This document shows, one piece after another, positions 12,262-24,479 of a stretch of DNA of 64,000 nucleotides. Within the stretch, counting starts at the first letter, position 1. Every line of letters starts with the position of its first letter. The notes beneath the pieces are model-generated. The model saw nothing but the letters and a program-made list of their open reading frames with translations. It was not told the DNA's origin and ran no database searches. Both the position numbers and the translations under genes were made by a program. This DNA is from Bacillota bacterium. Its GTDB lineage: Bacteria > Bacillota > Sulfobacillia > JAIMAT01. The stretch spans positions 53,200-117,199 of the forward strand of contig JASBVS010000005.1 of the NCBI GenBank assembly GCA_029960955.1, given 5' to 3'.

Positions 12262-12537
12262 TCAGGCGTCTTCGACGATGGCCAGGATGTCCGAGCGGCT
12301 CAGGATCAGGTGCGACTCCCCGTCCAGCTTGATCTCGTTCCCGCCATAGCGCGCGTAGAGAACGCGGTCGCCGACCTTGAAGATCTTCTGGAGCTCCTCG
12401 TCGGTCCCCACCGCCAGGATTTCGCCCTCCTGCGGCTTCTCCCTGGCGGTGTCAGGAAGATAGAGGCCCGACGCGGTCTTCTCCTCCTCGTGGATGGGCC
12501 GGACCAGAAGCCGATCGTCGACGGGCTTGATCTTCAT
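12262..12537 (-). CDS. groES: Co-chaperonin GroES (Cpn10), not followed by groEL
   Basis: MKIKPVDDRLLVRPIHEEEKTASGLYLPDTAREKPQEGEILAVG...VGDRVLY...LILSRSDILAIVE. The mobile loop is present. GGAGGAGGAG lies 6 nt upstream. Confidence 0.93.
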   Translation of the reverse strand: MKIKPVDDRLLVRPIHEEEKTASGLYLPDTAREKPQEGEILAVGTDEELQKIFKVGDRVLYARYGGNEIKLDGESHLILSRSDILAIVEDA

Positions 12538-12618
12538 GTTCTGCTCCTCCTCCGGCTGCGTCGCCTGCGCGCGCGGTCGCCGCGGGCCCGCGGGCTCCGG
12601 GGCCCCGAGGGGGCCGGC

Positions 12619-12861
12619 CTACTCGCGGAGTCCCAGGGCGCGGACGAGGCGCGCGCGATCGAAGCCGACGATGATCTGGCCGTTGACGTCGATGACCGGA
12701 ACGCCCATCTGACCCGACTTGCGCACCACCTCGCGCGCGGCGGCGGGGCTCTTCGAGACGTCGATCTCGCGGTAGGGCACCTTTCGCTCCGCCAGGAAGC
12801 GCTTGGTGGCGCGGCAGTACGGGCAGCTGGGGGTGGTGTAGACGAGAACCGCCACCCGCAT
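12619..12861 (-). CDS. Glutaredoxin-like protein (CPYC)
   Basis: MRVAVLVYTTPSCPYCRATKRFLAERKVPYREIDV...GVPVIDVNGQIIVGF. ATG at 12861 with AGGAGGG upstream; the longer ORF to 12984 was rejected. Confidence 0.88.
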   Translation of the reverse strand: MRVAVLVYTTPSCPYCRATKRFLAERKVPYREIDVSKSPAAAREVVRKSGQMGVPVIDVNGQIIVGFDRARLVRALGLRE

Positions 12862-12928
12862 CCCTCCTGCGCGGTGAGTCGCCGCAGCCGAAGCCGGCCG
12901 GCCGTGCGACCTGCGGCATCCGCCCGCC

Positions 12929-12957
12929 AGTATACCCACCCGGGTACCTGCAGCCAA
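12929..12957 (-). promoter_or_regulatory. Sigma-A-type promoter for grx-groES-hit
   Basis: The minus strand reads TTGGCT-17 nt-TATACT, about 70 nt upstream of the grx start. Confidence 0.55.
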
Positions 12958-13000
12958 GAGGGTGCCGCCGCCCCGGCGCCCCACGGCCCCGCCAAGGCGC

Positions 13001-13450
13001 CTACGCGGGGCGGTCGCTCCGCCGTGCCCGGCTGTAATGGATGGCCCAGACCAGAAGCCCGATGAAGAGGATATTGAGGGCGTACTCGGCCATCCCCTGG
13101 CGGAAGGCCAGGTCGCTCACCCGCCCGGGAAGGCTCTCCACCGTCAGCACCAGGATGCGACGCACGCTGGCGATCAGGGCCACCACCAGAAGCGGCTCGA
13201 AGTCGAGCACGTGCGTGCGGATGAAGACCACCACGGTATGGAGGAGCTCCAGGAGCATCATCACCACGAGGAGCGGGTCGAGCACACGCGCGACCGTCTC
13301 CGGGCCCGACTCCTGCAGGAAGAGGCGGATCGCGTCGACCAGCGCGGCGACCGCCAGGGCCACCAGCATGACGGCGACCACCATGTAGAGCACGTCTTCG
13401 ACCCAGTCGAGGATGCGAACCCATCCGCTGCGCCCGCCGGACGCCGGCAT
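13001..13450 (-). CDS. PsiE-family (phosphate-starvation-inducible) membrane protein
   Basis: Four hydrophobic helices. LLELLHTVVVFIRTH...LLVVALIASVRRILVL resembles the PsiE core. GGAGGG lies 6 nt upstream of the ATG. Confidence 0.6.
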   Translation of the reverse strand: MPASGGRSGWVRILDWVEDVLYMVVAVMLVALAVAALVDAIRLFLQESGPETVARVLDPLLVVMMLLELLHTVVVFIRTHVLDFEPLLVVALIASVRRILVLTVESLPGRVSDLAFRQGMAEYALNILFIGLLVWAIHYSRARRSDRPA

Positions 13451-13524
13451 CCCGATCCCTCCGTCCGCTCTCTTGCCAGGCTTCTGCGCGCGCCCGGCCT
13501 TCGCCTCCCCGCCAGGAAGCCCGG

Positions 13525-13935
13525 CTACACCCCGGCCCCGCCCTTCCTCTCCCCGCCCCCCGCGGAACCGGCGGGTTCCGCCCTCTCCGGCGCCTCCGCC
13601 TGCGCCAGCACCCGTTCCAGCAGCGCGGCCAGCTCGTCCTGCTCCCCGGCGTCGAGGGGCTCGAGCAGCAGGGCCAGGGCGTCGAAGAGGCGGTCGCGCC
13701 AGGCTTGCAGCTGGGCCATCCCCCTGGGCGTCAGCTGCACCTTGACCACCCGCTCGTCACTCGCCTGGCGCTCGCGCAGGACGAAGCCCCCGCGCTCGAG
13801 CCGCTTGCAGGCGATGGTGGCCGAGCTCGGGGTGATCCCCAGCTGCGCGGCCAGCTCGCCGATCGAGGTAGGTCCGGCCTCCTCCAGGTGGCGGAGGAGC
13901 CAGTACTGTTCCGGGGTCATCTCGCCCCGCCGCAC
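13525..13935 (-). CDS. MarR-family transcriptional regulator (start uncertain, probably further upstream)
   Basis: MTPEQYWLLRHLEEAGPTSIGELAAQLGITPSSATIACKRLERGGFVLRERQASDERVVKVQLTPRG is a winged-HTH of MarR type. The conservative GTG at 13935 would remove helix alpha-1 (ERLAHALIALWRLLRRR). Confidence 0.8.
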   Translation of the reverse strand: MRRGEMTPEQYWLLRHLEEAGPTSIGELAAQLGITPSSATIACKRLERGGFVLRERQASDERVVKVQLTPRGMAQLQAWRDRLFDALALLLEPLDAGEQDELAALLERVLAQAEAPERAEPAGSAGGGERKGGAGV

Positions 13936-14087
13936 CGGATGAGCGCGTCGGCGGAGCAGCCGCCAGAGGGCGATGAGCGCATGGGCGAGCCGCTCGCTGG
14001 CCGTCGGGTCCTCCTCCCTTCCGCCACCGATTGTAGACGACGCCCCGATCGCCCCGCCCCGTGGCGAACGACGTCGCGCCGGCCGGC

Positions 14088-14115
14088 TTGCTTCCGGGAG
14101 GGCGGGTCGTATATT
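14088..14115 (+). promoter_or_regulatory. Putative promoter for yceI-like gene inside the marR/yceI divergent region
   Basis: TTGCTT-16 nt-TATATT, followed by the AT-rich tract tttgatgtctgtctaaatgtctcc with repeated ATGTCT. This is a plausible MarR operator. Confidence 0.45.
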
Positions 14116-14157
14116 TTGATGTCTGTCTAAATGTCTCCGACTTGGGGAGGTTGCGTC

Positions 14158-14703
14158 ATGTCGGCTACGACCCGCACCGGGGTCTGGAAGGTGGACCCCG
14201 CCCACACCACGGTGGAGTTCTCCGTGCGGCACATGATGATCGCCACGGTCCGCGGCCAGTTCAACCAGGTGGCCGGCGAGCTGCGGGGCGACCCCGAGGA
14301 GCTCGCCTCGTGCGAGATCGAGGCGGTCGTCCAGGCCGCGTCGGTGGATACGCGCGAACCGGACCGGGATAATCACCTGCGCTCCGCCGACTTCTTCGAC
14401 GCCGAGCACCATCCGGAGATCCGCTTCCGCAGCCGGCGCATCACCCCCCGCGACGACGGGAGCTACGAGGTCGAGGGCGAGCTGACCATGCGCGGCGTCA
14501 CCCGCCCGGTCACCCTGGAACTCAGCTTCGAAGGCCGGATCCGCGACCCTTACGGGAACCAGCGGGCCGGCTTCACGCTGGAGGGGAAGATCAACCGCAG
14601 GGAGTGGGGGCTCAACTGGAACTCCCTGCTGGAGGCCGGCGGAGTTCTGGTGGGTGACGAGGTCAGGATCATCGTCCACGTCGAGGCCGTCCGCCAGGAG
14701 TAG
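14158..14703 (+). CDS. YceI-family polyisoprenoid-binding protein
   Basis: WKVDPAHTTVEFSVRHMMIATVRGQF...SVDTREPDRDNHLRSADFFD...LTMRGVTRPV. GGGGAGG lies 8 nt upstream of ATG 14158. Confidence 0.9.
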   Translation: MSATTRTGVWKVDPAHTTVEFSVRHMMIATVRGQFNQVAGELRGDPEELASCEIEAVVQAASVDTREPDRDNHLRSADFFDAEHHPEIRFRSRRITPRDDGSYEVEGELTMRGVTRPVTLELSFEGRIRDPYGNQRAGFTLEGKINRREWGLNWNSLLEAGGVLVGDEVRIIVHVEAVRQE

Positions 14704-14867
14704 CCGGTCCGGCAGCGCCGGCCGCCCTTCGCCCGGCCTTCCGGCCGGCGGGCGGCCGGCCCCCTTTTCGCCTCTCGCCTTCCGCCCTCCACGCCTCGCC
14801 GCCGCTATTCCCTTTCGCGCGAGCGGCGCCTATCATCATGACGAGAACATCCGAAGGGGGGCTGTCC

Positions 14868-15242
14868 GTGAAACGGATCCGGGTGGAGATTGTCGGCCTC
14901 CTGCCGGAATTCTTCAACATGTGCGCCGCCTGCCAGGGCATGGACTTCCTCCGCATCGCCAGCCTGGACTACCCGCGCGACCAGTTGCGGGAGTATCCGC
15001 CCGAAGTGGTGGAGGAGCAGCAGCGTGCGGTCGACGTGGTCAACGCCCTGGTCGGCGAGTTCGGTCCGGCCGTGGAGCCGGTCAGCGTCGACGTCTATTC
15101 GCCGCAGGGTCTCTGGCTCTCGCTACGCCACCGGCTCGGCCGGGGACCCGCGCTCGTCGTCGCAGGCCGTCGCGTCGTCCGGGAGTTGACGCCGGAGGCC
15201 GCATGCGCGGCGGTGCGCCAGGAGATGGTGGCTTCGGTCTGA
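14868..15242 (+). CDS. Hypothetical protein (CxxC-containing; possibly a thioredoxin-like fold)
   Basis: VKRIRVEIVGLLPEFFNMCAACQGMDF... GAAGGGGGG lies 7 nt upstream of GTG 14868 (longest ORF from 14838). I could not assign a family. Confidence 0.5.
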   Translation: MKRIRVEIVGLLPEFFNMCAACQGMDFLRIASLDYPRDQLREYPPEVVEEQQRAVDVVNALVGEFGPAVEPVSVDVYSPQGLWLSLRHRLGRGPALVVAGRRVVRELTPEAACAAVRQEMVASV

Positions 15243-15402
15243 CCCCCGGGGAATTCTTTCCGCTTTTCGCTGCGCCCGTCTCGCCTCTTCAAGTCAGCGC
15301 ATGGTTCGCCTCGGAAGGATTTCGCTCTTCGCCAGTCGAAGCCTCCTCTCACCGCGCCGCCGGGTGCGCGGCGGCGACGCTGCCACAAAAGGAGGGAGAA
15401 GC

Positions 15403-17127
15403 GTGACGACGCCGTTCTGGTTCGTCGTGGCGGCCCTGGTCTTTTATGGGATCGCCTTCCTGGGCTACGGCCGCTGGTACGACCGCAACGTCTGGAAACC
15501 CGACGCGAAGCGGACCACCCCGGCCCACATGTACATGGACGGCGTGGAGTTCTTCCCTGCGAGCCGGTACGTGCTCTGGGGCTACCAGTTCAAGAGCGTG
15601 GCCGCGCTGGGTCCGATCCTCGGTCCGTTCATCGCGCTCCAGTACGGCTGGTTGCCCGCCCTGATCTGGATCATCCTCGGCAACTTCTTCATCGGCTGGC
15701 TCCAGGACTACGGCGCCATCATGGTGTCGGTCCGGAACAACGGCCGCTCCTTCGGTCCCATCTCCTACGAATTCACCGGTGCCAGCGGTCGCAGCACCCT
15801 GCTGGGATTCATCCTGTTTTATCTGCAGATGATCTCGGCGACCTTCGTCTTCTTTATCGCGCAATTCTGGAACACCCTTCCCGGCACCTTCGCAGCCACG
15901 GTGGGTATCATCATCACCGCGGTGATCGTGGGCCAGCTGATGTACAAGGTCCGCCTCAACGTCGGGCTCACCACGCTGATCGGTCTTCTCCTCGTGGTCC
16001 TCTCCATCGTGGCCGGCGTCTACCTGCGGACACCGACCGATCCTTTCGGCGCCTGGTCGGCCCCCTTCTGGGCCGCGCTGGTGGGGGTCTTCCTCTTCGT
16101 CGCCTCCGTGCTGCCGCTGCCCTCGCTCATCCAGCCCATGAACTTCATCAGCTTCTTCCCCACCTTCATCGCGGTCATCCTGATCATCATCGGCGGTCTG
16201 CTTTCGCCGGTCTTCGGCGTCTCGCTGCAGCAGCCGGCCTGGAAGGGCTTCTGGTCACCGGCCACCGGGCCGCTCTGGCCGATGATGTTCCTGGCCATCG
16301 CCTGCGGCGCCATCTCCGGCTGGCATAGCCTGGTCGGCAGCTCCACCACCTCCAAGCAGCTGGACCTGGAGACCGACGCGCACCCCGTCGGCGCGGGTGC
16401 CATGCTCTCGGAGGGCCTGGTGGCGCTGGCCTCCCTGGCCGCCTACATGGTCCTGGCGCCCGGCGAGATCACCAAGAACACGACCGCCTGGGTGGCGGGC
16501 GCCATCCGCCTCACCGAGGGCTTCCTCGGCGGCAAGGGCGCCGAGGCCTTCCTGGCCACCTTCTTCGGCGTCTCGCTGGTGCTCTACGCCATCACGGTCC
16601 AGTCGCTGGTCACCCGCTTCTGGCGCCTGATCTCGGCGGAGGTGGCCGGCCAGGGGCGCTTCGCCATCCTCGGCCAGAAGCACGTGGCCACGTTCCTCGG
16701 CATCCTGATCGCCTGGCTCTTCGCCGTCTCCGGCTCGTGGAACAACCTCTGGCTCTACTTCGGCGGCTCCAACCAGCTGCTGGCGGGCCTGGCGCTGATG
16801 CTGATCTCCATCCACCTCGCCCGGGCCCAGAGCCAGAGCGGCTGGACCTTCTGGCCGGCGATGTTCATGATCGTCACCACCATCCTCGGGCTGGCCTTCC
16901 AGACCTACGTTTTCTTCAACGCCGTCTACACGGGGAAGACGCTGGTCCAGCCGCCCCTGGGCACCATCCCCTGGGCCGCCCACACGCTGGACGCCATCTT
17001 CACCCTCGTCGGCGTGATGCTGATCGTCCTCGGCCTCCGGATGGCGGTGATGACGATCCGCTCCTACCTCGCCTCCCGGGCCCAGCCCATGGCGGTGGCG
17101 GGACAGACGGCGACACCGGCGCGTTGA
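15403..17127 (+). CDS. cstA: Carbon starvation protein A (CstA family transporter)
   Basis: FLGYGRWYDRNVW...GYQFKSVAALGPILGPFIALQYGWLPALIWIILGNFFIGWLQDY..., more than 14 TM segments. AAGGAGGGAG lies upstream of GTG 15403. Confidence 0.93.
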   Translation: MTTPFWFVVAALVFYGIAFLGYGRWYDRNVWKPDAKRTTPAHMYMDGVEFFPASRYVLWGYQFKSVAALGPILGPFIALQYGWLPALIWIILGNFFIGWLQDYGAIMVSVRNNGRSFGPISYEFTGASGRSTLLGFILFYLQMISATFVFFIAQFWNTLPGTFAATVGIIITAVIVGQLMYKVRLNVGLTTLIGLLLVVLSIVAGVYLRTPTDPFGAWSAPFWAALVGVFLFVASVLPLPSLIQPMNFISFFPTFIAVILIIIGGLLSPVFGVSLQQPAWKGFWSPATGPLWPMMFLAIACGAISGWHSLVGSSTTSKQLDLETDAHPVGAGAMLSEGLVALASLAAYMVLAPGEITKNTTAWVAGAIRLTEGFLGGKGAEAFLATFFGVSLVLYAITVQSLVTRFWRLISAEVAGQGRFAILGQKHVATFLGILIAWLFAVSGSWNNLWLYFGGSNQLLAGLALMLISIHLARAQSQSGWTFWPAMFMIVTTILGLAFQTYVFFNAVYTGKTLVQPPLGTIPWAAHTLDAIFTLVGVMLIVLGLRMAVMTIRSYLASRAQPMAVAGQTATPAR

Positions 17128-17233
17128 GGCTGCACGGCTTCGGCGAGGCCGTGCGAGGGCAGGGACCGGCCCAGGCGACGCAGACCGGCGGCCGGCCGGC
17201 GGGCGGCCGCGAGAACGAAGAAGGGCATCGGAG

Positions 17234-17263
17234 CCCGGGCAGGGCCGGCGGGTCCTGCCCGGG
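17234..17263 (+). terminator. 10-bp GC hairpin between cstA and the first gene of the ArsA-like cluster
   Basis: CCCGGGCAGG-10 nt-CCTGCCCGGG, ending 30 nt before ATG 17293. There is no U-tract, so function as terminator or attenuator is unproven. Confidence 0.4.
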
Positions 17264-17292
17264 CGCAACCTATCTCGGCGAGGTGAGAAGAG

Positions 17293-17610
17293 ATGTTCTG
17301 GCGCCGCAACAAGAAGACGGAGCAGGAGGCTCCCGCCGAAGGCGGGGAGACCGGCGAGAAGCAGGGCCTCGGCAACGTGATGAAGGACGTCCTCTACGGC
17401 ATGGCCTCGCACGGCAACGTGACCGCGGCGCTGCGCACGCGCATGTACATGGAGCACCTCTTCATGTTCATCACCCTGGGCGACATGCTCGGCATCCCCG
17501 TCCTGCCGCCCTACTACTCGCTGCGGATTCTTCCGTACGCGGTTCCCAACATCGAGTCGTGGAAGCAGCGCGTCTTCCGCGAGCGCGACTTCACGGACGC
17601 GCTCTACTAG
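17293..17610 (+). CDS. Conserved ~100-aa hypothetical protein, copy 1 (paralog of 20901..21203)
   Basis: GAGGTGAGAAGAG lies upstream of the ATG. The core HLFMFITLGDMLGIPVLPPYYSLRILPYAVPNIESWKQR aligns with the copy on the other arm. Confidence 0.75.
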   Translation: MFWRRNKKTEQEAPAEGGETGEKQGLGNVMKDVLYGMASHGNVTAALRTRMYMEHLFMFITLGDMLGIPVLPPYYSLRILPYAVPNIESWKQRVFRERDFTDALY

Positions 17611-17652
17611 CGCGGCTTGCCGGTTCGCGAGCTCATCGGAGGTGAAGACGAC

Positions 17653-18651
17653 TTGAAGCCGGCCGGGCTCAAAGCCTACTTCGACGCACACCCCGAGATC
17701 CGCGTGGCCATCTTCGCGGGCAAGGGCGGGCTGGGCAAGACCACGTCCAGCTCGTCGCTCGCCTATTACATGGCTACGGAGAAGAAGTGCAAGACGCTCC
17801 TCTTCAGCACCGACCCCCAGGCCTCGCTCTCCGACATCTTCGAGCGGAACTTCTTCGGCAGAGGCGTCATCGAGGTGATCCCGAACCTCTTCGTGGTCGA
17901 GATCGACGCCGACCGGCGGGTGGCGGAGTACCAGGCGAGCGTCAAGCAGAAGATCCGCGACATGTACGGGCTGGACGAGCTGCCGCGCGAGATCGAGGAG
18001 TACGTCGACTCCTCCTCCGCGGAGCCGTCCATGTACGAGTCGGCCACCTACGACGCCATGGCCGAACTTGTGGCCGCCAACGAGTACGACATGTACATCT
18101 TCGACATGCCCCCCTTCGGGCACGGCGTGCGCATGGTCGCCATGGCGGAGATCCTCTCCAAGTGGGTGGAGAAGATCACCGAGGCGCGCAGCCAGGTGGC
18201 CGAATACGAGCAGGTGGCCGCCTCCCTGAAGGGCGAGCGCGCGCAGGAAGACGCCATGATGGCCGAGCTGCTCGACATCCGCCAGCGGATCACCACCTTC
18301 ACCGACCTGATCACCAACCAGAAGAGCACCGGCTTCTTCATGGTGCTGATCCCGGAACAGATGGCCATCCTCGACACCGATCGCGCCCTCTCCATGTTCT
18401 CCGAGCTGGGCATCCAGCTCTCCGGGCTGATCGTCAACCAGGTCTACCCGCCCGAGCTGATCGAACAGCCCAACCTGAGCGAGTTCCTCCGCAACCGGCT
18501 CGAGGGACAGCGTCCCTACCTGGAGGAGATCGCGCGCAAGTTCGGCGAGCGCGTCCTCTCCGTGGTGCCCATGTACACCCGCGAGCCGAAGGGGCTGGAG
18601 ATGATCGCGCGGGCCAGCGCCGACCTGATGGATTGCAAGGTGGCCATCTAG
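17653..18651 (+). CDS. ArsA/Get3 (TRC40)-family ATPase, copy 1 (motifs intact)
   Basis: Deviant Walker A AGKGGLGKTT, STDPQASLSD (ArsA A-loop/switch I type) and DMPPFGHGVRM (DTAPTGH-type switch II). TTG at 17653 has GGAGG 10 nt upstream; the longest ORF starts at TTG 17617. Confidence 0.88.
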   Translation: MKPAGLKAYFDAHPEIRVAIFAGKGGLGKTTSSSSLAYYMATEKKCKTLLFSTDPQASLSDIFERNFFGRGVIEVIPNLFVVEIDADRRVAEYQASVKQKIRDMYGLDELPREIEEYVDSSSAEPSMYESATYDAMAELVAANEYDMYIFDMPPFGHGVRMVAMAEILSKWVEKITEARSQVAEYEQVAASLKGERAQEDAMMAELLDIRQRITTFTDLITNQKSTGFFMVLIPEQMAILDTDRALSMFSELGIQLSGLIVNQVYPPELIEQPNLSEFLRNRLEGQRPYLEEIARKFGERVLSVVPMYTREPKGLEMIARASADLMDCKVAI

Positions 18652-18712
18652 ACGAGCCGGGCGAGCGTGCTCCGGCGCGCTTCCACCCAGGAAGGGAGGA
18701 CGGTTCCCGACC

Positions 18713-19738
18713 ATGCAGAGCCTGAGCGAGTTCCTCGAGGAACACCCCGACCTGCGCTTCGTCTTCACGGGCGGGAAGGGCGGGGTCGGCAAGACGGTCA
18801 GCGCGGCGGTGCTGGCCTACCACTTCGCGCGCCAGGGGAAGCGGACGCTCCTGGCCTCGCTCAACCCCGTCCACTCGCTTTCCAGCCTCTTCGGCCAGGA
18901 CCTCTCCGGCGGCCAGGTGCGGCCGGTGCGGGGAGTCGACGGCCTCTTCGCCATCGAGGTGAACACCGAGGACGCGGTCCAGCGCTACCGGGAGAGCGTC
19001 AGCGCGCGCATCCGCGAGTTCCTCCGCTACGCCGACATCCCGGTGGACGCCCGCCCCTTCATCGACATCGCCATGACCAACCCGGCCTTCGAAGAGTCGG
19101 CCATGTTCGACAAGATGACCGACATGATGCTGATGCAGTCCGGCGAATACGACCGCATCGTCTTCGACACGGCGGCCGTCGCCAACGCCGTCCGCCTGAT
19201 CGGCCTCTCCAAGATCTACGGCCTCTGGCTGGGTCGGCTCATCGAGAGCCGCAAGGAGGCGCTCTCCCTCCGCGTCCAGCTCTCCTTCCGCAAGGATAAG
19301 GTGCTGGAGGAGGTGCAGCGCGACCCGATGATGGCGGACCTGATCGCCATGAGCCAGCGCTTCGACAGGGTGAAGGGGCTGCTGGTCGATCCGGCGATCA
19401 CCGCCTTCTTCTTCGTCACCCTGCCGCTCTCCCTGCCCATCTCGGTCGTCAAGCGCTTCATCGAGATGGTCCGCGCCTACGACATCCCGGTCGGCGGCGT
19501 CCTCGTCAACGAGGTGATCACCCACGAGTCGCTGGGCGAGACGCCGGACGAGTACCTGCGGAACAAGTTCGCGGAGCAGGGCGCCTACCTCCAGACCATC
19601 CAGAACGACCTGGGTCCGCTGGTGCGGGCCTACCTGCCGCTCTACCCCCGCGAGGTGGTCGGCCTGGAGGCGGTGGAGCGGGTGGCCGAGGACATGTTCC
19701 GGCCGAGCCAGGACCTGGCCGCCGAGCTGCCCGCCTGA
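18713..19738 (+). CDS. ArsA/Get3-family ATPase, copy 2 (divergent signature motifs)
   Basis: GGKGGVGKTV P-loop. The N-terminus LSEFLEEHPDLRFVFTGGKGG parallels copy 1. The STDP motif is replaced by SLNPVHSL and switch II by DTAAVANAVRL. Confidence 0.85.
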   Translation: MQSLSEFLEEHPDLRFVFTGGKGGVGKTVSAAVLAYHFARQGKRTLLASLNPVHSLSSLFGQDLSGGQVRPVRGVDGLFAIEVNTEDAVQRYRESVSARIREFLRYADIPVDARPFIDIAMTNPAFEESAMFDKMTDMMLMQSGEYDRIVFDTAAVANAVRLIGLSKIYGLWLGRLIESRKEALSLRVQLSFRKDKVLEEVQRDPMMADLIAMSQRFDRVKGLLVDPAITAFFFVTLPLSLPISVVKRFIEMVRAYDIPVGGVLVNEVITHESLGETPDEYLRNKFAEQGAYLQTIQNDLGPLVRAYLPLYPREVVGLEAVERVAEDMFRPSQDLAAELPA

Positions 19739-19762
19739 GCGACTGCACGGAGGCGCCGTAGG

Positions 19763-20260
19763 GTGGAGGGCGCACGGGTGAGCGAGCATCTGATCGCGGC
19801 CAACAACCTGATCCTGGGAACGGTCAACTTCCTCGTGCTGACGCTCCCCGAGGGGTGGGGCCTGATGGATCCGGGCAGCCCGCCGGAGGTGGAGGCCCGG
19901 GTCCTGCTCGACGGCGTCTCCTGGACGCGCGACGGCCGGGCCGCCTACCTGCTCCGGCTGGACGACGGCCGCGTGGCCCACCTGGACCTGCGCGTCGCCT
20001 CCGCGCTGCCTCCGCCCCCGCCCGGCCTCCAGCCCGAGCGGCCGGCGGTCGAACTGGCCGTCAACGGCCATCCCGCCCGGCTGGAGTCGGGCCGGGCGCG
20101 GCCGGTCCTGGGGCGGTTCGGCCGCGCCCGGCCGGTGCTGACCCTCGGCTTCGCCTGCCCGGTCACCGGCCGCGGGCTGCGCCTCACGCTCTGGGGCGAG
20201 CTGCGGGCGGAGGAGCGGAGCCAGCTGGTCGCCAGCCTCGCCGCGCTGGGCTGCCATTGA
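19763..20260 (+). CDS. Hypothetical protein (last gene of the plus-strand arm)
   Basis: It follows arsA-like 2 by 24 nt. GGAGG lies upstream of both GTG 19763 and GTG 19778. No recognisable motif. Composition is typical of this genome. Confidence 0.5.
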   Translation: MEGARVSEHLIAANNLILGTVNFLVLTLPEGWGLMDPGSPPEVEARVLLDGVSWTRDGRAAYLLRLDDGRVAHLDLRVASALPPPPPGLQPERPAVELAVNGHPARLESGRARPVLGRFGRARPVLTLGFACPVTGRGLRLTLWGELRAEERSQLVASLAALGCH

Positions 20261-20274
20261 AGCGGGGGCCCCGG

Positions 20275-20293
20275 CGCAGGAAGGCTTCCTGCG
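20275..20293. terminator. Short hairpin between the two convergent arms
   Basis: CGCAGGAAG-g-CTTCCTGCG, between stop codons at 20260 and 20331. Confidence 0.35.
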
Positions 20294-20330
20294 GCGCGAC
20301 CCGCCGGCGGAGGGTGCAGCGGGCGTGCCG

Positions 20331-20837
20331 CTAGGCGAGGTCGGCCACGCGCCCGCGCAGCGTGCGGAAGGCGGCCTCCACCACGGGTTCGGGCACGCCG
20401 CGCAGCGGGACGGCCAGGTGCAGGTGCGGGTGCTCCCTCCGGAGCGCCAGCACCGATCCGGCCGGAAGGCCGGGAAGCCGGTCGGGGCTCTCCAGGATCT
20501 CCTCCCGCCCGGGACGGCGCAGGAGATCGGCCTCGATCACCAGGGTGTCGCCGCGCCCGCGCCAGAGCGCCCAGAGGACGGCCAGCGGCGCCTCGCGCCC
20601 GGCCAGGAGGGCCAGGACGGAGACGGCCCGGTAGGGGGCCGAGGCGTCCCGGATGTCGATGCGGAAGGCCGAGCTGCCGTGCCAGCGGATGGTGGCCGAA
20701 CCGGCCAGCTCCCGCAGGTGCGGGCGGAGGGCGGCCAGAAGGCGTCCGGCGCGGCGGCGGTTGACGAGCCCGCCGGCCACCCACCAGACGGCGAGCAGGC
20801 CGGCCAGCCCGAAGACGAGCCAGTTGAGCGGCGACAC
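20331..20837 (-). CDS. Hypothetical N-terminally membrane-anchored protein
   Basis: MSPLNWLVFGLAGLLAVWWVAGGLV is a single TM followed by RRR. GGGAGGGAG lies 4-5 nt upstream of GTG 20837. No family recognised. Confidence 0.6.
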   Translation of the reverse strand: MSPLNWLVFGLAGLLAVWWVAGGLVNRRRAGRLLAALRPHLRELAGSATIRWHGSSAFRIDIRDASAPYRAVSVLALLAGREAPLAVLWALWRGRGDTLVIEADLLRRPGREEILESPDRLPGLPAGSVLALRREHPHLHLAVPLRGVPEPVVEAAFRTLRGRVADLA

Positions 20838-20900
20838 GTTCTCCCTCCCGGCGCGGGCGGCCCGGCCGCCCGCCTTGGACGAGAGGCGGCGCAGGCCGCC

Positions 20901-21203
20901 TCAGTCGAAGTGCGGCAGCTCTTCGACGATGTCGACCTCCTGTGCCAGCCGCTCCCGCCAGCCCGGCAGGCCTTCCAGGGCGTAGGGCAGGAGGCGGAGG
21001 CTGATGGAGGCGTTCATCAGCGGCAGCCCCAGGAACTCGCCGAAGATCATCAGGCGGACGAGGTCGTCCAGCTTCCTGGCCTGTTCCGCGGTCTCGCGGT
21101 AGCTGTCGTAGTAGAAGAGGCCCCAGAGGAACTGGCGGACCTTCTCCCGCCAGCCCGGCAGCCCGCGCCGCCCGCCCGCGCCCGTCCCCGCCGTCGCCCG
21201 CAT
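20901..21203 (-). CDS. Conserved ~100-aa hypothetical protein, copy 2 (paralog of 17293..17610)
   Basis: DLVRLMIFGEFLGLPLMNASISLRLLPYALEGLPGWRER aligns with copy 1. A strong GGAGGGGAGGGGGAG RBS is present, and it starts 25 nt after the upstream gene. Confidence 0.75.
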   Translation of the reverse strand: MRATAGTGAGGRRGLPGWREKVRQFLWGLFYYDSYRETAEQARKLDDLVRLMIFGEFLGLPLMNASISLRLLPYALEGLPGWRERLAQEVDIVEELPHFD

Positions 21204-21228
21204 CGCTCCCCCTCCCCTCCCGCCCGGG

Positions 21229-22011
21229 CTAGACCGGCGTGCCGAAGAGCCGCTCCTGCCAGCCCCGGAAGTACCGCCAGCTGGCGAAGTTGAGGACGCG
21301 GCGGGCGCGGCGGAAATCGGAGGCGAGACTCTCCAGCACCTGTCGCCAGCCGGAGAGGTTGGCGCCCTCCTGGTCGGCCGCCAGCTCGTAGTAGCGGCGG
21401 CCTTCCTCCTCCAGCCAGTCCAGCGGCGTCGCCGAGAGCCTCGCCACGTGCTCGGCGAAGACCCCGCTCAGGAAGAGCGCCAGGTCGCCGATCCGCCGGT
21501 AGACCAGGAAGCGGTCGCGGGCGTCGACCACCCGGGCCAGCTCCTTCATCCGCCTCAGGTCGAGCTCGCTGACGCGCATCCTCCGCGGTCCGCGCGGCGT
21601 CCGCACCCAGATGCGGCCGCTGCTCGCCCGGGTGAAGGAGGCCAGCAGCAGCGCCAGGTAGTCCCGCCGCTGCCGGTCGGCCAGGAAGCGGACCAGCTCC
21701 GGCGTGTCGAAGACCGGCACCCGCATCCGTGGCCCCGCCAGCTCGCTGGCATAGCTGGTGCTCGCCAGGTCGCGCAACGCCTGGCGCAGGAAGACCTGGA
21801 AGAGGAGGAAGGGCGTCACCCTGGCCAGCCACTCCTCGACGCGCGAGAGCTCCGCGAAGAGCCGCGGGTCGTCCAGGAGGACCTCCACCTGCTCCGGAGC
21901 CCGCCGCAGCCTCTCCACCGCCTGCGCGCCCTCCCCCTGCCCCGTCGCCTCGGCCAGGAAGCGCAGGTCCTGTTCGCTCAGGTGCTCGAGTAGGAGCGGC
22001 GACGCGGCCAC
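21229..22011 (-). CDS. Hypothetical 260-aa protein
   Basis: GTG at 22011 has GGAGGG 9 nt upstream. Mostly helical-looking sequence (..FLLFQVFLRQALRDL.., ..YRRIGDLALFLSGVFAEH..). No recognisable family. Confidence 0.6.
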   Translation of the reverse strand: MAASPLLLEHLSEQDLRFLAEATGQGEGAQAVERLRRAPEQVEVLLDDPRLFAELSRVEEWLARVTPFLLFQVFLRQALRDLASTSYASELAGPRMRVPVFDTPELVRFLADRQRRDYLALLLASFTRASSGRIWVRTPRGPRRMRVSELDLRRMKELARVVDARDRFLVYRRIGDLALFLSGVFAEHVARLSATPLDWLEEEGRRYYELAADQEGANLSGWRQVLESLASDFRRARRVLNFASWRYFRGWQERLFGTPV

Positions 22012-22053
22012 GCTTGCATCCCTCCGGCTCCACGTTAGCGGGTCAGGAGCAGT

Positions 22054-22980
22054 TTAGCGCGCTCTTTCCCCGCCGTCGAAGCGCCAGAAACCGCCACTCC
22101 AAATCATGTGCGCGATGTAGACGACGTTTTCCGTCGTCCCCTCCAGCCGGGCCGCCCCGCTCAGCCGGACGTCGACCCGCCGGCCCTCGCCCGTCCCGGC
22201 GTCGCCGCCCTGCACTTCCCCCGCCTCGAGCGTGTAGTTCCGGTAGCTCCCCATCCCCTCCGCCCAGGCGGCGGTGTCCACGGCCTCCGGCCTGCCGTAC
22301 CGCGCCCGCAGGTCGGCTCCCATCAGCCGCCACATGGCGTCGCGGTCGGGGATGGCCGCGATCCAGAGATCCAGGGCGTCCTCCGGCGCCAGGCCCTTCA
22401 CCAGCTGCGAGTCGACCGGCGGCAGCAGCCGCTGGAAGAGGAAGCCCTCCCCGGTGAAGGGCCGCTCCTCGCTCCCCACGCGGACGCCCTCCACCCGCAG
22501 CTCCACGCCCTTGACGCCCGGCACGGAGGCGACCGTCAGGGCGATCTGGTCGAGAAGCGTCGCCACCGCCGTCGTCCCGCCCGTCTGCTCGAGCTCGCGC
22601 GAGAAGTCCAGCGTCGCCACGGGGCGGGCCAGCTCCACCGAGAGCAGACGGACGCCGCGGGGCAGTGCGCTCGCCAGCCCCGCCGACCGCTCCTCCGCCG
22701 TCGGGCCTGCCAGCAGCGCCTCGATGGCCGCCCGCAGGCGGCCGCGGCTGTCGTCCGCCCGCACCCCCTCAGGAAGCGGGCGCCGGACCGGAACCAGCTG
22801 CGGCCCGCCCGCCCCCGCGCTCCGCGCGAAGTAGACCGCCAGCGCCGGCTCCCCCGTCCGCCCCGGCTGCACCGCAGCCGGGGGCCTCCGGGCGGCGGGT
22901 CCGGTCGCCGTCGCGCCGCCCGACCCCGCGCCGCAGGCGGCGACCAGCAGCAGGAGGAGGGCGAGCGCGCTTCCCGCCAT
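22054..22980 (-). CDS. GerM-like lipoprotein (one GerMN domain plus an unknown C-terminal domain)
   Basis: Signal/lipobox MAGSALALLLLLVAACG. The GerMN-like block is LAVYFAR...LVPVRRPLP...RLRAAIEALLAGPTAEERSAGLASALP...LLSVELARPVATLDFSREL...LLDQIALTVASVPGVKGVELRVEG. ATG at 22980. Confidence 0.7.
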   Translation of the reverse strand: MAGSALALLLLLVAACGAGSGGATATGPAARRPPAAVQPGRTGEPALAVYFARSAGAGGPQLVPVRRPLPEGVRADDSRGRLRAAIEALLAGPTAEERSAGLASALPRGVRLLSVELARPVATLDFSRELEQTGGTTAVATLLDQIALTVASVPGVKGVELRVEGVRVGSEERPFTGEGFLFQRLLPPVDSQLVKGLAPEDALDLWIAAIPDRDAMWRLMGADLRARYGRPEAVDTAAWAEGMGSYRNYTLEAGEVQGGDAGTGEGRRVDVRLSGAARLEGTTENVVYIAHMIWSGGFWRFDGGERAR

Positions 22981-23294
22981 CGCTCCCGCCGCCCTCCGTC
23001 CCGCCTCCTTCTCGTTCACCCGATCCCCTCCTGACCGCTTGGACGAGCGAGCGCCAGGCGGAGTTGCGGCAACCGGCAGGCCGCCGGTGGCAGGCCGCAG
23101 CTCCCGCGCCGTCGGCCGCGGGCGACGTATGGTACGATACGAACCGGTCGTCCGCTGTCGAAACCGGTCCTTTCCGCCTCCCCGGAGGTGTCCGCCCCAC
23201 GGAAGGTCGCCAGCCCTCACGCCTACAAGGCGCCTTTTCCGCCCTGCGTCACCGCAACTTCCGGCTCTTCTTCGCCGGCCAGGCGGTCTCGCTG

Positions 23295-24479
23295 GTGGGC
23301 ACGTGGATGCAGAACGTGGGGCAGGGCTGGCTCGTCCTGCAGCTGAGCAACTCGCCCTGGGTGGTGGGCACGGTCACCGCGCTCCAGTTCCTTCCCTTCC
23401 TCATCTTTTCGCTAGTGGCCGGGGCGCTGGTCGACCGGCTCTCCAAGCGCGGGCTCCTGGTGGCCACGCAGAGCCTGCTCGGCCTCCTCGCCCTGGCGCT
23501 CGGGCTCCTGACGCTCTCCGGCCGGGTGCGCGTCTGGCACGTGGCGCTCCTCGCCTTCCTGACCGGGACGGTGCAGAGCTTCGACAACCCGGGGCGGCAG
23601 GCGTTCATCGTCGAGATGGTGGGGCGCGAGGACCTGATGAACGCCATCTCGCTCAACTCCTCCGTCTTCAACGGAGCCCGCCTGATCGGGCCGGCGGTGG
23701 CCGGGCTGGTCATCGGCCGGGCCGGCGTCGGCTGGGCCTTCGTGATCAACGCCGCCAGCTTCCTCGCCGTCATCGCCGGGCTCCTCCTGATGCGGCTGGA
23801 GCGGCCGGCGCAGGTGCCCGTCCACGCCTCGCTCGTCAAAGAGGTGGTGGGCGGCTTGGAGTACGTCCGCAAGACGCCGCTCGTCCTGGTGACCACCCTG
23901 CTGATCGGCGTGATCAGCACCTTCGCCCTCAACTTCAACGTCCTGATGCCGGTCTTCGTCCGCTTCACCCTGGGCTCGGGCCCGGAGACGCTCGGCTACC
24001 TGATGTCGGCCCTGGGGACGGGCGCCCTGAGCGGCGCGCTGGTGCTGGCCTACCTGTCGCGCCGGGGCCCGAGGCGGGAGTTGCTCCTGGGTGGGGGGCT
24101 CGTCTTCAGCCTGGGCGTCACCCTGCTGGGCACCCTCCACCGCTTCGCGACCGCCTTCGCCCTCCTGCTCGTGACCGGCTTCGCCATGATCATCTACACC
24201 GCCACCTCCAACAGCACCATCCAGGTGACGGTGCCCAACCAGCTGCGCGGCCGCGTGATGAGCCTCTACGTGATGGTGCTCAACGGCGTCGCTCCGCTGG
24301 GATCGCTCTTCGTGGGCTGGCTGGCGCAGCGCTGGAACGCGGGCGCCGGCTTCCTGGTGGGGGGCGCGGTCAGCCTGGCGGCCGTCCTGGCCGCCGTCGC
24401 CCTGCGGCGGCGCTGGGATCCGGATCTGAGGCCCGTGCCGGCCGTGGGCGGCAGCAGGGCCCGGGGCGGGGTGGCGTGA
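23295..24479 (+). CDS. MFS transporter (EntS/MFS_3-like); true start probably upstream of the first canonical start codon
   Basis: (FSALRHRNFRLFFAGQAVSLV)GTWMQNVGQGWLVLQLSNS... with 12 TM segments. The conserved N-terminal FR.L...Q motif precedes the first in-frame GTG/ATG. Confidence 0.85.
   Translation: MGTWMQNVGQGWLVLQLSNSPWVVGTVTALQFLPFLIFSLVAGALVDRLSKRGLLVATQSLLGLLALALGLLTLSGRVRVWHVALLAFLTGTVQSFDNPGRQAFIVEMVGREDLMNAISLNSSVFNGARLIGPAVAGLVIGRAGVGWAFVINAASFLAVIAGLLLMRLERPAQVPVHASLVKEVVGGLEYVRKTPLVLVTTLLIGVISTFALNFNVLMPVFVRFTLGSGPETLGYLMSALGTGALSGALVLAYLSRRGPRRELLLGGGLVFSLGVTLLGTLHRFATAFALLLVTGFAMIIYTATSNSTIQVTVPNQLRGRVMSLYVMVLNGVAPLGSLFVGWLAQRWNAGAGFLVGGAVSLAAVLAAVALRRRWDPDLRPVPAVGGSRARGGVA

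Follow-up and report, generated by a model that had tools for sequence, protein, structure and literature searches.

Paired ArsA/Get3-class ATPases encoded with a CstA-family permease in a Bacillota genome

Background

Two adjacent genes for ArsA/Get3-class ATPases are found in a 64,000-nucleotide (nt) stretch of a Bacillota genome (assembly GCA_029960955.1, contig JASBVS010000005.1, positions 53,200 to 117,199 of the forward strand; this whole stretch is referred to as the window). Which system do these ATPases serve? In a reading made from the sequence alone, they were assigned to an uncharacterised cluster of eight genes at window positions 17293-22980, an arsenic role was considered unlikely, and a membrane-protein targeting or assembly function with a possible link to sporulation was suggested. 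The analysis reported here indicates that the locus very probably represents a conserved membrane module of eight components, with a CstA-family permease at its centre. The module consists of a thioredoxin-like CxxC protein, CstA, two small proteins (CstX1 and CstX2), ArsA1, ArsA2, a His/Cys-rich protein of 165 amino acids (aa) and CstY.

Results and discussion

Module composition and distribution

The small proteins of the cluster belong to the DUF7990 family (see below), and their relatives were used to find related loci. With small protein 2 as the query, phmmer returned 131 clusters at E<=1e-3 from 1.8 billion representative proteins. The motif YY[SA]LRLLPY was then sought in one genome for each GTDB species; at least 593 loci were confirmed, such that DUF7990 small-protein relatives are present in at least 593 species-representative genomes. 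All locus counts given below (out of 80 or 81) rest on the best 80 of these loci and their open reading frames (ORFs). These 80 come from Chloroflexota, Acidobacteriota, Bacillota, Proteobacteria, Rokubacteria, Bathyarchaeia, Caldarchaeales and Nitrososphaerota. The eight proteins of positions 17293-22980 were compared with the 80 loci by tblastn, and all ORFs of the loci were clustered all-against-all.

The same-strand order of small protein(s), ArsA1-type ATPase and ArsA2-type ATPase is almost universal. An ArsA1-type gene lies directly downstream of the small-protein gene in 77/80 loci, and an ArsA2-type gene is also present in this arrangement in 73/80. The window ATPases show 42-67% identity to their own counterparts in the loci and approximately 30% identity to the other paralogue (tblastn), so the orthology of ArsA1 and ArsA2 is clear. 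Clustering of the ORFs identified a protein of approximately 600 aa in 68 loci, which is the CstA-type gene product. By tblastn, 71/80 loci have a CstA homologue no more than 1.9 kb from the small-protein/ATPase core, and six of the nine loci lacking one are contigs that end less than 1 kb from the core. Homologues of CstY (the c7 family) are encoded in 55/81 loci, those of the thioredoxin-like protein (c8) in 45/81 and those of the 165-aa protein (c20) in 17/81. All eight module components are found in a single Anaerolineales locus (L005). Other repeated neighbours, including alcohol dehydrogenase (ADH), short-chain dehydrogenase/reductase (SDR), ApbA and ABC ATPase genes, occur in just 7-11 loci each and are outside the module core. 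The module is widespread in both bacteria and archaea, and its composition and linkage, together with the ATPase asymmetry discussed below, are the parts that these data establish.

The sequence-only reading had made its proposal dependent on conserved linkage of three hypothetical proteins to paired ArsA genes. This linkage was found for the small proteins and for the single-transmembrane (TM) protein, here CstY. It was not found for the 260-aa protein.

Gene layout and translation starts

The cluster as drawn at 17293-22980 is too short at its 5' end, as the CstA and thioredoxin-like genes belong to it; the organising permease, encoded just upstream, had been overlooked. The CstA gene ends 165 nt upstream of small protein 1. 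The genes of the module and its immediate neighbours are as follows, where L082 is a syntenic contig from a metagenome-assembled genome (MAG) and HMM is a hidden Markov model.

14838..15242, plus strand: thioredoxin-fold CxxC protein, 134 aa (c8 family; profile matches to archaeal thioredoxins)
15403..17127, plus strand: CstA-family permease (Pfam CstA, E-value: 1.9e-106)
17293..17610, plus strand: small protein 1, CstX-type, DUF7990, 105 aa (PF25952 on the L082 orthologue)
17617..18651, plus strand: ArsA1-type ATPase, 344 aa (Pfam ArsA_ATPase, TIGR00345)
18713..19738, plus strand: ArsA2-type ATPase, 341 aa (Pfam ArsA_ATPase, TIGR00345)
19763..20260, plus strand: 165-aa accessory protein (c20 family, invariant His/Cys)
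20331..20837, minus strand: CstY-type protein, 168 aa (c7 family HMM, E-value: 4.6e-38)
20901..21203, minus strand: small protein 2, CstX-type, DUF7990, 100 aa (PF25952, precomputed annotation)
21229..22011, minus strand: 260-aa protein of an unnamed family (lineage-specific neighbour)
22054..23019, minus strand: GerM-like lipoprotein (Pfam Germane, E-value: 1e-19)

All eight ORFs of 17293-22980 are present at these positions, and the arrangement originally described, two convergent arms with tandem ArsA/Get3-type ATPases, agrees with the coordinates, codon usage and family matches. The gaps between genes are 6, 61 and 24 nt in the plus-strand arm and 42, 25 and 63 nt in the minus-strand arm, and the two arms are separated by 70 nt. 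The GC content at third codon positions (GC3) is 0.93-0.97 for each of the eight ORFs in a genome of approximately 73% GC, and most of the ORFs are preceded by a GGAGG-type ribosome-binding site (RBS). Because of these two properties, the ORFs are real genes, which counters the alternative that they are untranslated shadow frames.

Three of the starts deserve comment. The longest ORF for CstA begins at 15301, while the GTG codon at 15403 is preceded by a strong RBS (AAGGAGGGAG) and the L082 orthologue has 574 aa; GTG 15403 is likely the CstA start. Candidate starts for the GerM-like lipoprotein are at 22980, 23019 and 23220. The GTG at 23019 has an RBS (AGGAGGGG) and is probably the start, rather than 22980. 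The TTG start of ArsA1 at 17617 has no RBS and lies 6 nt past the stop codon of small protein 1, and translation of ArsA1 may be coupled to this stop. A search of 12500-24000 for Rfam riboswitches and leaders produced just two chance-level matches, and a scan for promoters and terminators was uninformative in this 73% GC DNA.

Directly upstream of the module (13525-14703) are a MarR-family regulator gene on the minus strand and a gene for a YceI-like protein on the plus strand (14131-14703). Both hold the same position in L082.

The plus-strand arm (15300-19740) has a GC content of 64-68%, compared to 73-77% in the surrounding DNA. Its proteins are nearest to those of Chloroflexota/Terriglobia MAGs (L002, L005 and L006), with identities of up to 85% for small protein 1, 67% for ArsA1 and 62-66% for ArsA2; identities to the plus-arm proteins are approximately 45-47% in two other Bacillota loci (L011 and L013). 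This GC content and these closest relatives suggest lateral acquisition of the arm.

Relationship to published clusters

Clusters of cstA, cstX, cstY and genes homologous to arsA were recognised from their genomic neighbourhood in SEED by Castillo & Saier (Int J Microbiol 2010:187373; PMC2963123), who listed 26 instances. In these clusters, single-domain ArsA homologues of approximately 330 aa are encoded with cstA and with CstX, an approximately 90-aa protein with a single transmembrane segment (TMS) that is always found with CstA. CstX is present in one to three paralogous copies. CstY, an approximately 210-aa single-TMS protein, was reported from five archaea only. The ATPases often come as adjacent pairs, with approximately 25-31% identity within pairs; such pairs were noted in Symbiobacterium thermophilum (Sth1/Sth2, 345/339 aa) and Pyrobaculum arsenaticum. 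Thermococcus kodakarensis and Bacillus halodurans are among the organisms listed with clusters of this type. The authors concluded that CstA, CstX and the ArsA homologues co-evolved, and suggested a role for the ATPase in energising CstA, to which CstX would couple it. They also found that ars and cst genes never occur in one operon (PMC2963123).

The window locus is of this cluster type. The association is thus already published, and the cluster is not uncharacterised in type as first stated. Both include CstA, CstX, a larger single-TMS protein and a pair of single-domain ArsA homologues (344/341 aa in the window), and neither includes ars genes. DUF7990 proteins are here equated with CstX, and c7 proteins with CstY, by size, TMS count and context, not by sequence comparison. 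CstY is more common than the five archaeal cases indicated, as it is found in 55/81 loci of this survey, including bacterial ones. The thioredoxin-like and His/Cys partners, the strict Asp/Asn division of the ATPases and the CCDC47-like predicted fold of CstY go beyond the 2010 description. A literature search on cory-CC-star, DUF7990, CstA with Get3, and BagA/BagB returned nothing relevant.

Paired ArsA/Get3-class ATPases

ArsA1 and ArsA2 both match Pfam ArsA_ATPase (E-values: 3e-66 and 7e-54, respectively) and score above the 135-bit cut-off of NCBIfam TIGR00345 (GET3_arsA_TRC40; 214 and 191 bits). They are 32% identical to each other. Both P-loops are intact (GKGGLGKT and GKGGVGKT), and the SxD/N motif reads STD and SLN, respectively. 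The same division holds across the related loci. In ArsA1-type proteins, the motifs S-[VT]-D-P-Q-A-S and D..P.GH are invariant (73/73 orthologues). In ArsA2-type proteins, the switch I sequence is S-[TL]-N-P-V-H-S, in which Asn takes the place of the catalytic Asp in 68/68 orthologues, and switch II reads FDTA..A[N/H], with N in 61/68.

The catalytic Asp of ArsA1 (Asp66, replaced by Asn51 in ArsA2) is equivalent to D57 of yeast Get3. D57 is needed for hydrolysis in Get3, where the D57N protein binds ATP without hydrolysing it, and the Asp of ArsA is required likewise. By these motifs, ArsA1 is presumed to be catalytically competent, while ArsA2 is presumed to be degenerate, binding ATP but hydrolysing it poorly. 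From the Asp/Asn split and the intact P-loops, the two proteins look like obligate partners in an asymmetric dimer that has a single working site. In this respect the pair looks like an unfused version of the A1 and A2 halves of ArsA. The strict Asp/Asn division between the paralogues is a feature new in this analysis.

There is no conserved cysteine in either ATPase family (the top Cys column reaches 29% in ArsA1-type and 6% in ArsA2-type proteins), and so metalloid activation of these ATPases is effectively excluded. Both are single-domain proteins and score 91 bits against TIGR04291, the ArsA equivalog model, which has a cut-off of 650. The Pfam annotation of L082 includes no ars genes within approximately 10 kb on either side of the module (the check was made there, not across the 64 kb), and no ars-like partner recurs near the module among the 80 related loci. 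The judgement that an arsenic role is unlikely is borne out by these results.

The nearest solved relatives of the ATPases are the archaeal Get3 structures 3ug6 (E-value: 5e-52) and 3zq6 (E-value: 7e-50). The Get3-type helical insert is mostly kept in the window ATPase. At the zinc CxxC site of Get3, the window sequence reads LSEFLRN, as opposed to QCDFCRA in 3ug6 and DCEFCNA in 3zq6. In composition, the groove helices are similar to those of archaeal Get3 in overall hydrophobicity (hydrophobic fraction of 0.35-0.38, and 0.39-0.41 in archaeal Get3), with about half the Met content (4-5%, and 9-12% in archaeal Get3).

Comparison with known systems shows both similarities and differences. Like the ArsA-ArsB pump, the module combines a deviant-Walker-A ArsA-class ATPase that has two non-equivalent sites with a permease of the secondary-carrier type. 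In the ArsDAB system, ArsD is a small thioredoxin-fold Cys protein, and a protein of this kind is also encoded alongside the window module. Unlike ArsA, the two ATPases are separate polypeptides rather than one fused protein (approximately 580 aa) and have no metalloid-binding cysteines; the permease is CstA, which is unrelated to ArsB/Acr3, and there are extra CstX and CstY subunits. The window ATPases share their length and domain layout with Get3/TRC40 and pass TIGR00345, an umbrella family that includes ArsA. They differ from Get3/TRC40 in forming an obligate-looking heteropair with one degenerate site rather than a homodimer, in lacking the CxxC zinc motif, in having less Met in the helical subdomain and in being encoded with a specific permease, and no Get1/Get2-type partner was recognised. 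The mycobacterial BagA/BagB proteins (Rv3679/Rv3680) are likewise two adjacent ArsA/Get3-class ATPases. However, the window ATPases score far below the cut-offs of the BagA/BagB equivalog models (30-46 bits, with cut-offs of 400 and 521).

CstX-type small proteins

The suggestion that the same small protein is encoded once per arm was correct, as small proteins 1 and 2 are paralogues (25% identity, E-value: 1e-11). Five of the eight genes had been thought to match no family. This is true of three of them, which have no curated family, but the two small proteins correspond to DUF7990. According to precomputed Pfam annotation, PF25952 (DUF7990) matches small protein 2 and its relatives, and both small proteins of L082. 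Their only NCBIfam match is NF041419 (cory-CC-star), with scores of 32.1 bits (small protein 1) and 36.4 bits and a cut-off of 80; the E-values for the two proteins are 4e-9 and 9e-8. A C-terminal Cys-Cys is missing from both, as they terminate in ...DALY and ...PHFD. They are related to cory-CC-star without being members of it.

CstX-type proteins have a median length of approximately 97 aa and adjoin the ATPases and CstA in 79 loci. The conserved core of the family is GDxLGxPxxPPYYxLRLLPY...WKRR.LRERD. In a moderate-confidence AlphaFold2 (AF2) model of small protein 2 (predicted local distance difference test [pLDDT] score of 77), a 39-residue helix (residues 19-57) is followed by the conserved G-x-P loop and a short helix (residues 65-76). 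The hydrophobic stretch is a borderline TM segment, with a median 19-residue Kyte-Doolittle maximum of 1.53, and it holds the invariant G-x-P. No structural neighbours of CstX were identified using Foldseek, nor did other Pfam families match. CstX was also considered as an analogue of Asterix, and this candidate was rejected: there is no Asterix Pfam match in 62 members and no Foldseek match.

CstY-type protein

In the CstY-type protein, a cytosolic alpha/beta domain comes after a clear N-terminal TM anchor. As the anchor carries a positive-inside NRRR sequence, the folded domain is expected to face the cytoplasm, the side of the ATPases. Typical members of the family are approximately 212-216 aa in length, the archaeal ones with an N-terminal TMS. 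The window protein and its L082 orthologue are without a middle segment of approximately 55 aa that is kept in nearly all other members, and the AF2 model is for this reason a trimmed version of the family fold.

This model was built with database homologues and has a pLDDT of 91.9 and a predicted TM-score (pTM) of 0.83. The N-terminal TM helix runs into a long helix, which is followed by an eight-stranded sheet and a C-terminal helix. In a Foldseek search against the PDB, the top match is 7tm3_4 (E-value: 7.5e-6; TM-score [TMq] of 0.71). 7tm3 is the multipass translocon, and its chain 4 is presumably CCDC47. Chain 9i78_4, which is named CCDC47 in the PDB sequence file, follows with a TMq of 0.70, and a chain of 6w6l with a TMq of 0.53; everything else has a TMq of 0.28 or less. 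The CstY-type protein is confidently predicted from this model to fold like CCDC47.

Sequence comparison gives a fainter signal. The CstY profile has a single match among PDB sequences, CCDC47 of 9i78 (E-value: 0.17), located at the TM/juxtamembrane motif (AGGLVNRRRAG in the window and IGASLNRRKAK in CCDC47). PF07946 (CCDC47) matches 1/46 and 2/21 CstY-family members, with E-values of 0.17 and 0.022, below the gathering score. It is the only family that matches more than one bacterial-type CstY (2/21, best E-value: 0.022), and the window protein itself has no PF07946 match. Identity between CstY and CCDC47 is 10%, under every sequence threshold. CstY thus resembles CCDC47, a subunit of the PAT (protein associated with the translocon) complex, in its predicted single TM helix, cytosolic alpha/beta domain and C-terminal helix, with a weak motif echo. 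Unlike CCDC47, it has no luminal acidic domain, no Asterix-like partner was detected, and its context is a permease and ATPases, not SecY or the ribosome.

CstA permease and accessory proteins

The permease shows clear similarity to the Pfam CstA family (E-value as above). Against the NCBIfam model for the E. coli CstA pyruvate/proton symporter, it scores 169 bits with a cut-off of 1188, and so it can be classified as a distant family member, not an orthologue of E. coli CstA.

The 134-aa thioredoxin-like protein has a CxxC motif that reads C-A-A-C in the window, where the family consensus is HCxHC. The c8 family profile matches the archaeal thioredoxins 1nho (E-value: 2e-4) and 1fo5 (E-value: 1e-3). 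Pfam Thioredoxin_3 matches 5/15 c8 members and DUF1525 matches 6/15; the window copy has no match in Pfam or NCBIfam. There is no Pfam ArsD match in the family. By likeness to ArsD, a chaperone-like role for the protein is conceivable.

The 165-aa protein belongs to a family that is encoded in both bacterial and archaeal loci, mostly right after ArsA2. Its invariant alignment columns (alignment A6) are His103, Cys132, the C-terminal Cys164-His165, Trp32, Pro29 and Pro40. There is no Pfam, NCBIfam or structure match for this protein. The pattern of invariant residues suggests a putative metal-binding protein with a four-ligand site.

Lineage-specific neighbours

The remaining two genes of the minus-strand arm encode the 260-aa protein and the GerM-like lipoprotein. 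The latter was correctly recognised, as it has a Germane domain (E-value as above) and a lipobox-like leader (...LLLLVAAC) that can be read from the sequence. Neither protein was found in the 80 related loci by tblastn; they are located beside the module only in the close relatives L082 (83% identity) and L001, a short contig. GerM is a lineage-specific neighbour outside the conserved module.

For the 260-aa protein, 245 homologous clusters were found, all of them without a Pfam domain. The protein itself matches nothing in Pfam or NCBIfam, and the best E-value of its profile against the PDB is 0.14. Family members are approximately 280-290 aa in length, have 18 invariant residues, come from Chloroflexota, Actinomycetota, Dormibacterota and Bacillota, and are mostly encoded by stand-alone genes. 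The homologues in L084, L086 and L088, which represent two genomes of Actinomycetota and one further MAG of Bacillota, have contexts unrelated to CstA/ArsA. With three distant homologues in such contexts and no homologue in the 80 loci, the protein was rejected as a module component and is probably another lineage-specific neighbour.

Proposed model and alternatives

The reading favoured here, tentatively and at somewhat less than even confidence, is that the module forms an ATPase-coupled or ATPase-gated CstA transporter complex. It would operate as follows. ArsA1 and ArsA2 would pair as an asymmetric dimer, in imitation of the A1 and A2 halves that are fused in ArsA. This dimer would be docked onto CstA by CstX and the CstY cytosolic domain. 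ATP binding and hydrolysis at the single competent site would then drive or gate transport by CstA, as ArsA makes ArsB a pump. By family, the CstA substrate would be pyruvate or peptides, and the conserved accessory proteins with CxxC and His/Cys residues may point to a cargo, or a form of regulation, that involves thiols or metals. The transporter reading is favoured because the linkage to one specific permease is near-universal and because the CstY cytosolic domain and CstX are plausible tethers. As CstA-family carriers function alone elsewhere (in E. coli), the ATPase looks like an add-on, as it is with ArsB. Several points weigh against this reading. The ATPases are far nearer to archaeal Get3 (E-value: 5e-52) than to E. 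coli ArsA (E-value: 1e-23), and the predicted CCDC47-like fold of CstY belongs to a membrane-protein chaperone subunit, not a transporter. The moderately hydrophobic segment of CstX stops approximately 20 residues from the C-terminus, such that CstX is possibly a tail-anchored-like client. Three loci (L004, L045 and L078) have reasonable flanks yet no CstA. Lastly, a literature search for experimental follow-up of the cst module found none.

A possible but not a probable alternative is that the ATPases function in Get3-like biogenesis. ArsA1/ArsA2 would be an ATP-dependent chaperone or targeting factor that holds hydrophobic segments, for example those of CstX or nascent CstA, and hands them to a membrane receptor or chaperone, CstY (possibly with CstX), to assemble a membrane complex instead of energising transport. 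The archaeal Get3 relatives, the mostly kept helical insert and the position of the CstX hydrophobic segment near the C-terminus are consistent with this, as are the CstY results: the three matches to CCDC47 in translocon structures stand well apart from all others in TMq, CCDC47 is the sole PDB sequence match of the CstY profile, and its Pfam family is the only one that matches more than one bacterial-type CstY. However, the tie to one permease (71/80 loci) would be unexpected for a general targeting machine, and CstA homologues elsewhere manage without such a factor. CstY is anchored at its N-terminus and so is not a tail-anchored client. The CstX stretch is weakly hydrophobic (1.53) and is broken by the invariant G-x-P, and CstX shows no likeness to Asterix. 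The zinc CxxC of Get3 is also missing (SEFLRN aligned with CDFC). The second alternative, which is unlikely, is a regulatory ATPase: the heterodimer would sense the nucleotide state and open or close CstA in response to ATP/ADP, or to a redox or metal signal received via the CxxC and His/Cys proteins, and would do no work on the substrate. Every pair has one degenerate site, a property shared with many regulatory P-loop dimers; the thioredoxin-like and His/Cys accessory proteins are conserved; and CstA-family carriers are, by the NCBIfam family name, proton symporters with no need for ATP. Sequence does not separate regulation from energy coupling, though, and ArsA likewise has non-equivalent nucleotide sites yet is a true pump subunit.

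The two remaining alternatives have little in their favour. A sporulation module headed by GerM and acting in spore or forespore membrane assembly is very improbable. The GerM and 260-aa genes do share a strand with cstX2-cstY and come before them, spaced by 25-63 nt, and this arrangement is kept in L082. Nevertheless, L001 and L082 are the only relatives in which the two genes adjoin the module, and none of the other 80 loci has them. In other Bacillota and in Actinomycetota, the 260-aa protein has homologues that are unlinked to the module. The module is also frequent in groups that form no endospores, namely archaea, Chloroflexota and Acidobacteriota. The link to sporulation proposed in the sequence-only reading is not upheld. 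The least credible explanation is that ArsA1 and ArsA2 are classical ArsA arsenite/antimonite resistance ATPases. Both match Pfam ArsA_ATPase, but they are single-domain proteins without a conserved Cys that fall far short of the ArsA equivalog cut-off (91 bits as opposed to 650). In addition, no ArsB, Acr3, ArsR, ArsC or ArsD is encoded near the module in the L082 annotation, and ars and cst genes do not share operons in the published survey (PMC2963123).

Conclusions

The module occurs in at least 593 (about 600) species-level genomes from many bacterial and archaeal phyla. If the ATPase pair does energise CstA, an ArsA-class ATPase would for a second time, and independently, have made a secondary carrier a primary pump, and it would change the view of the CstA-family 'carbon starvation' transporters. 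If instead the pair and the CCDC47-like CstY function in assembly, the module would bear on the function of prokaryotic Get3 and the origin of the PAT complex.

Prokaryotes are said to be without PAT components (Sundaram et al. 2022, PMC9630114). It is a long shot, but CstY could be a true prokaryotic relative of CCDC47 that, together with the DUF7990 proteins and the asymmetric Get3-like pair, would constitute an ancient machine, present in bacteria and TACK archaea, that uses ATP to assemble membrane proteins or to control their quality, serving CstA or wider clients. Two points are worth pursuing: the asymmetry of the ATPase pair and the subunit with the predicted CCDC47-like fold. Were CstY such a relative, the claim that prokaryotes lack PAT-complex components would be overturned, and prokaryotic Get3 homologues would have their first membrane partner.

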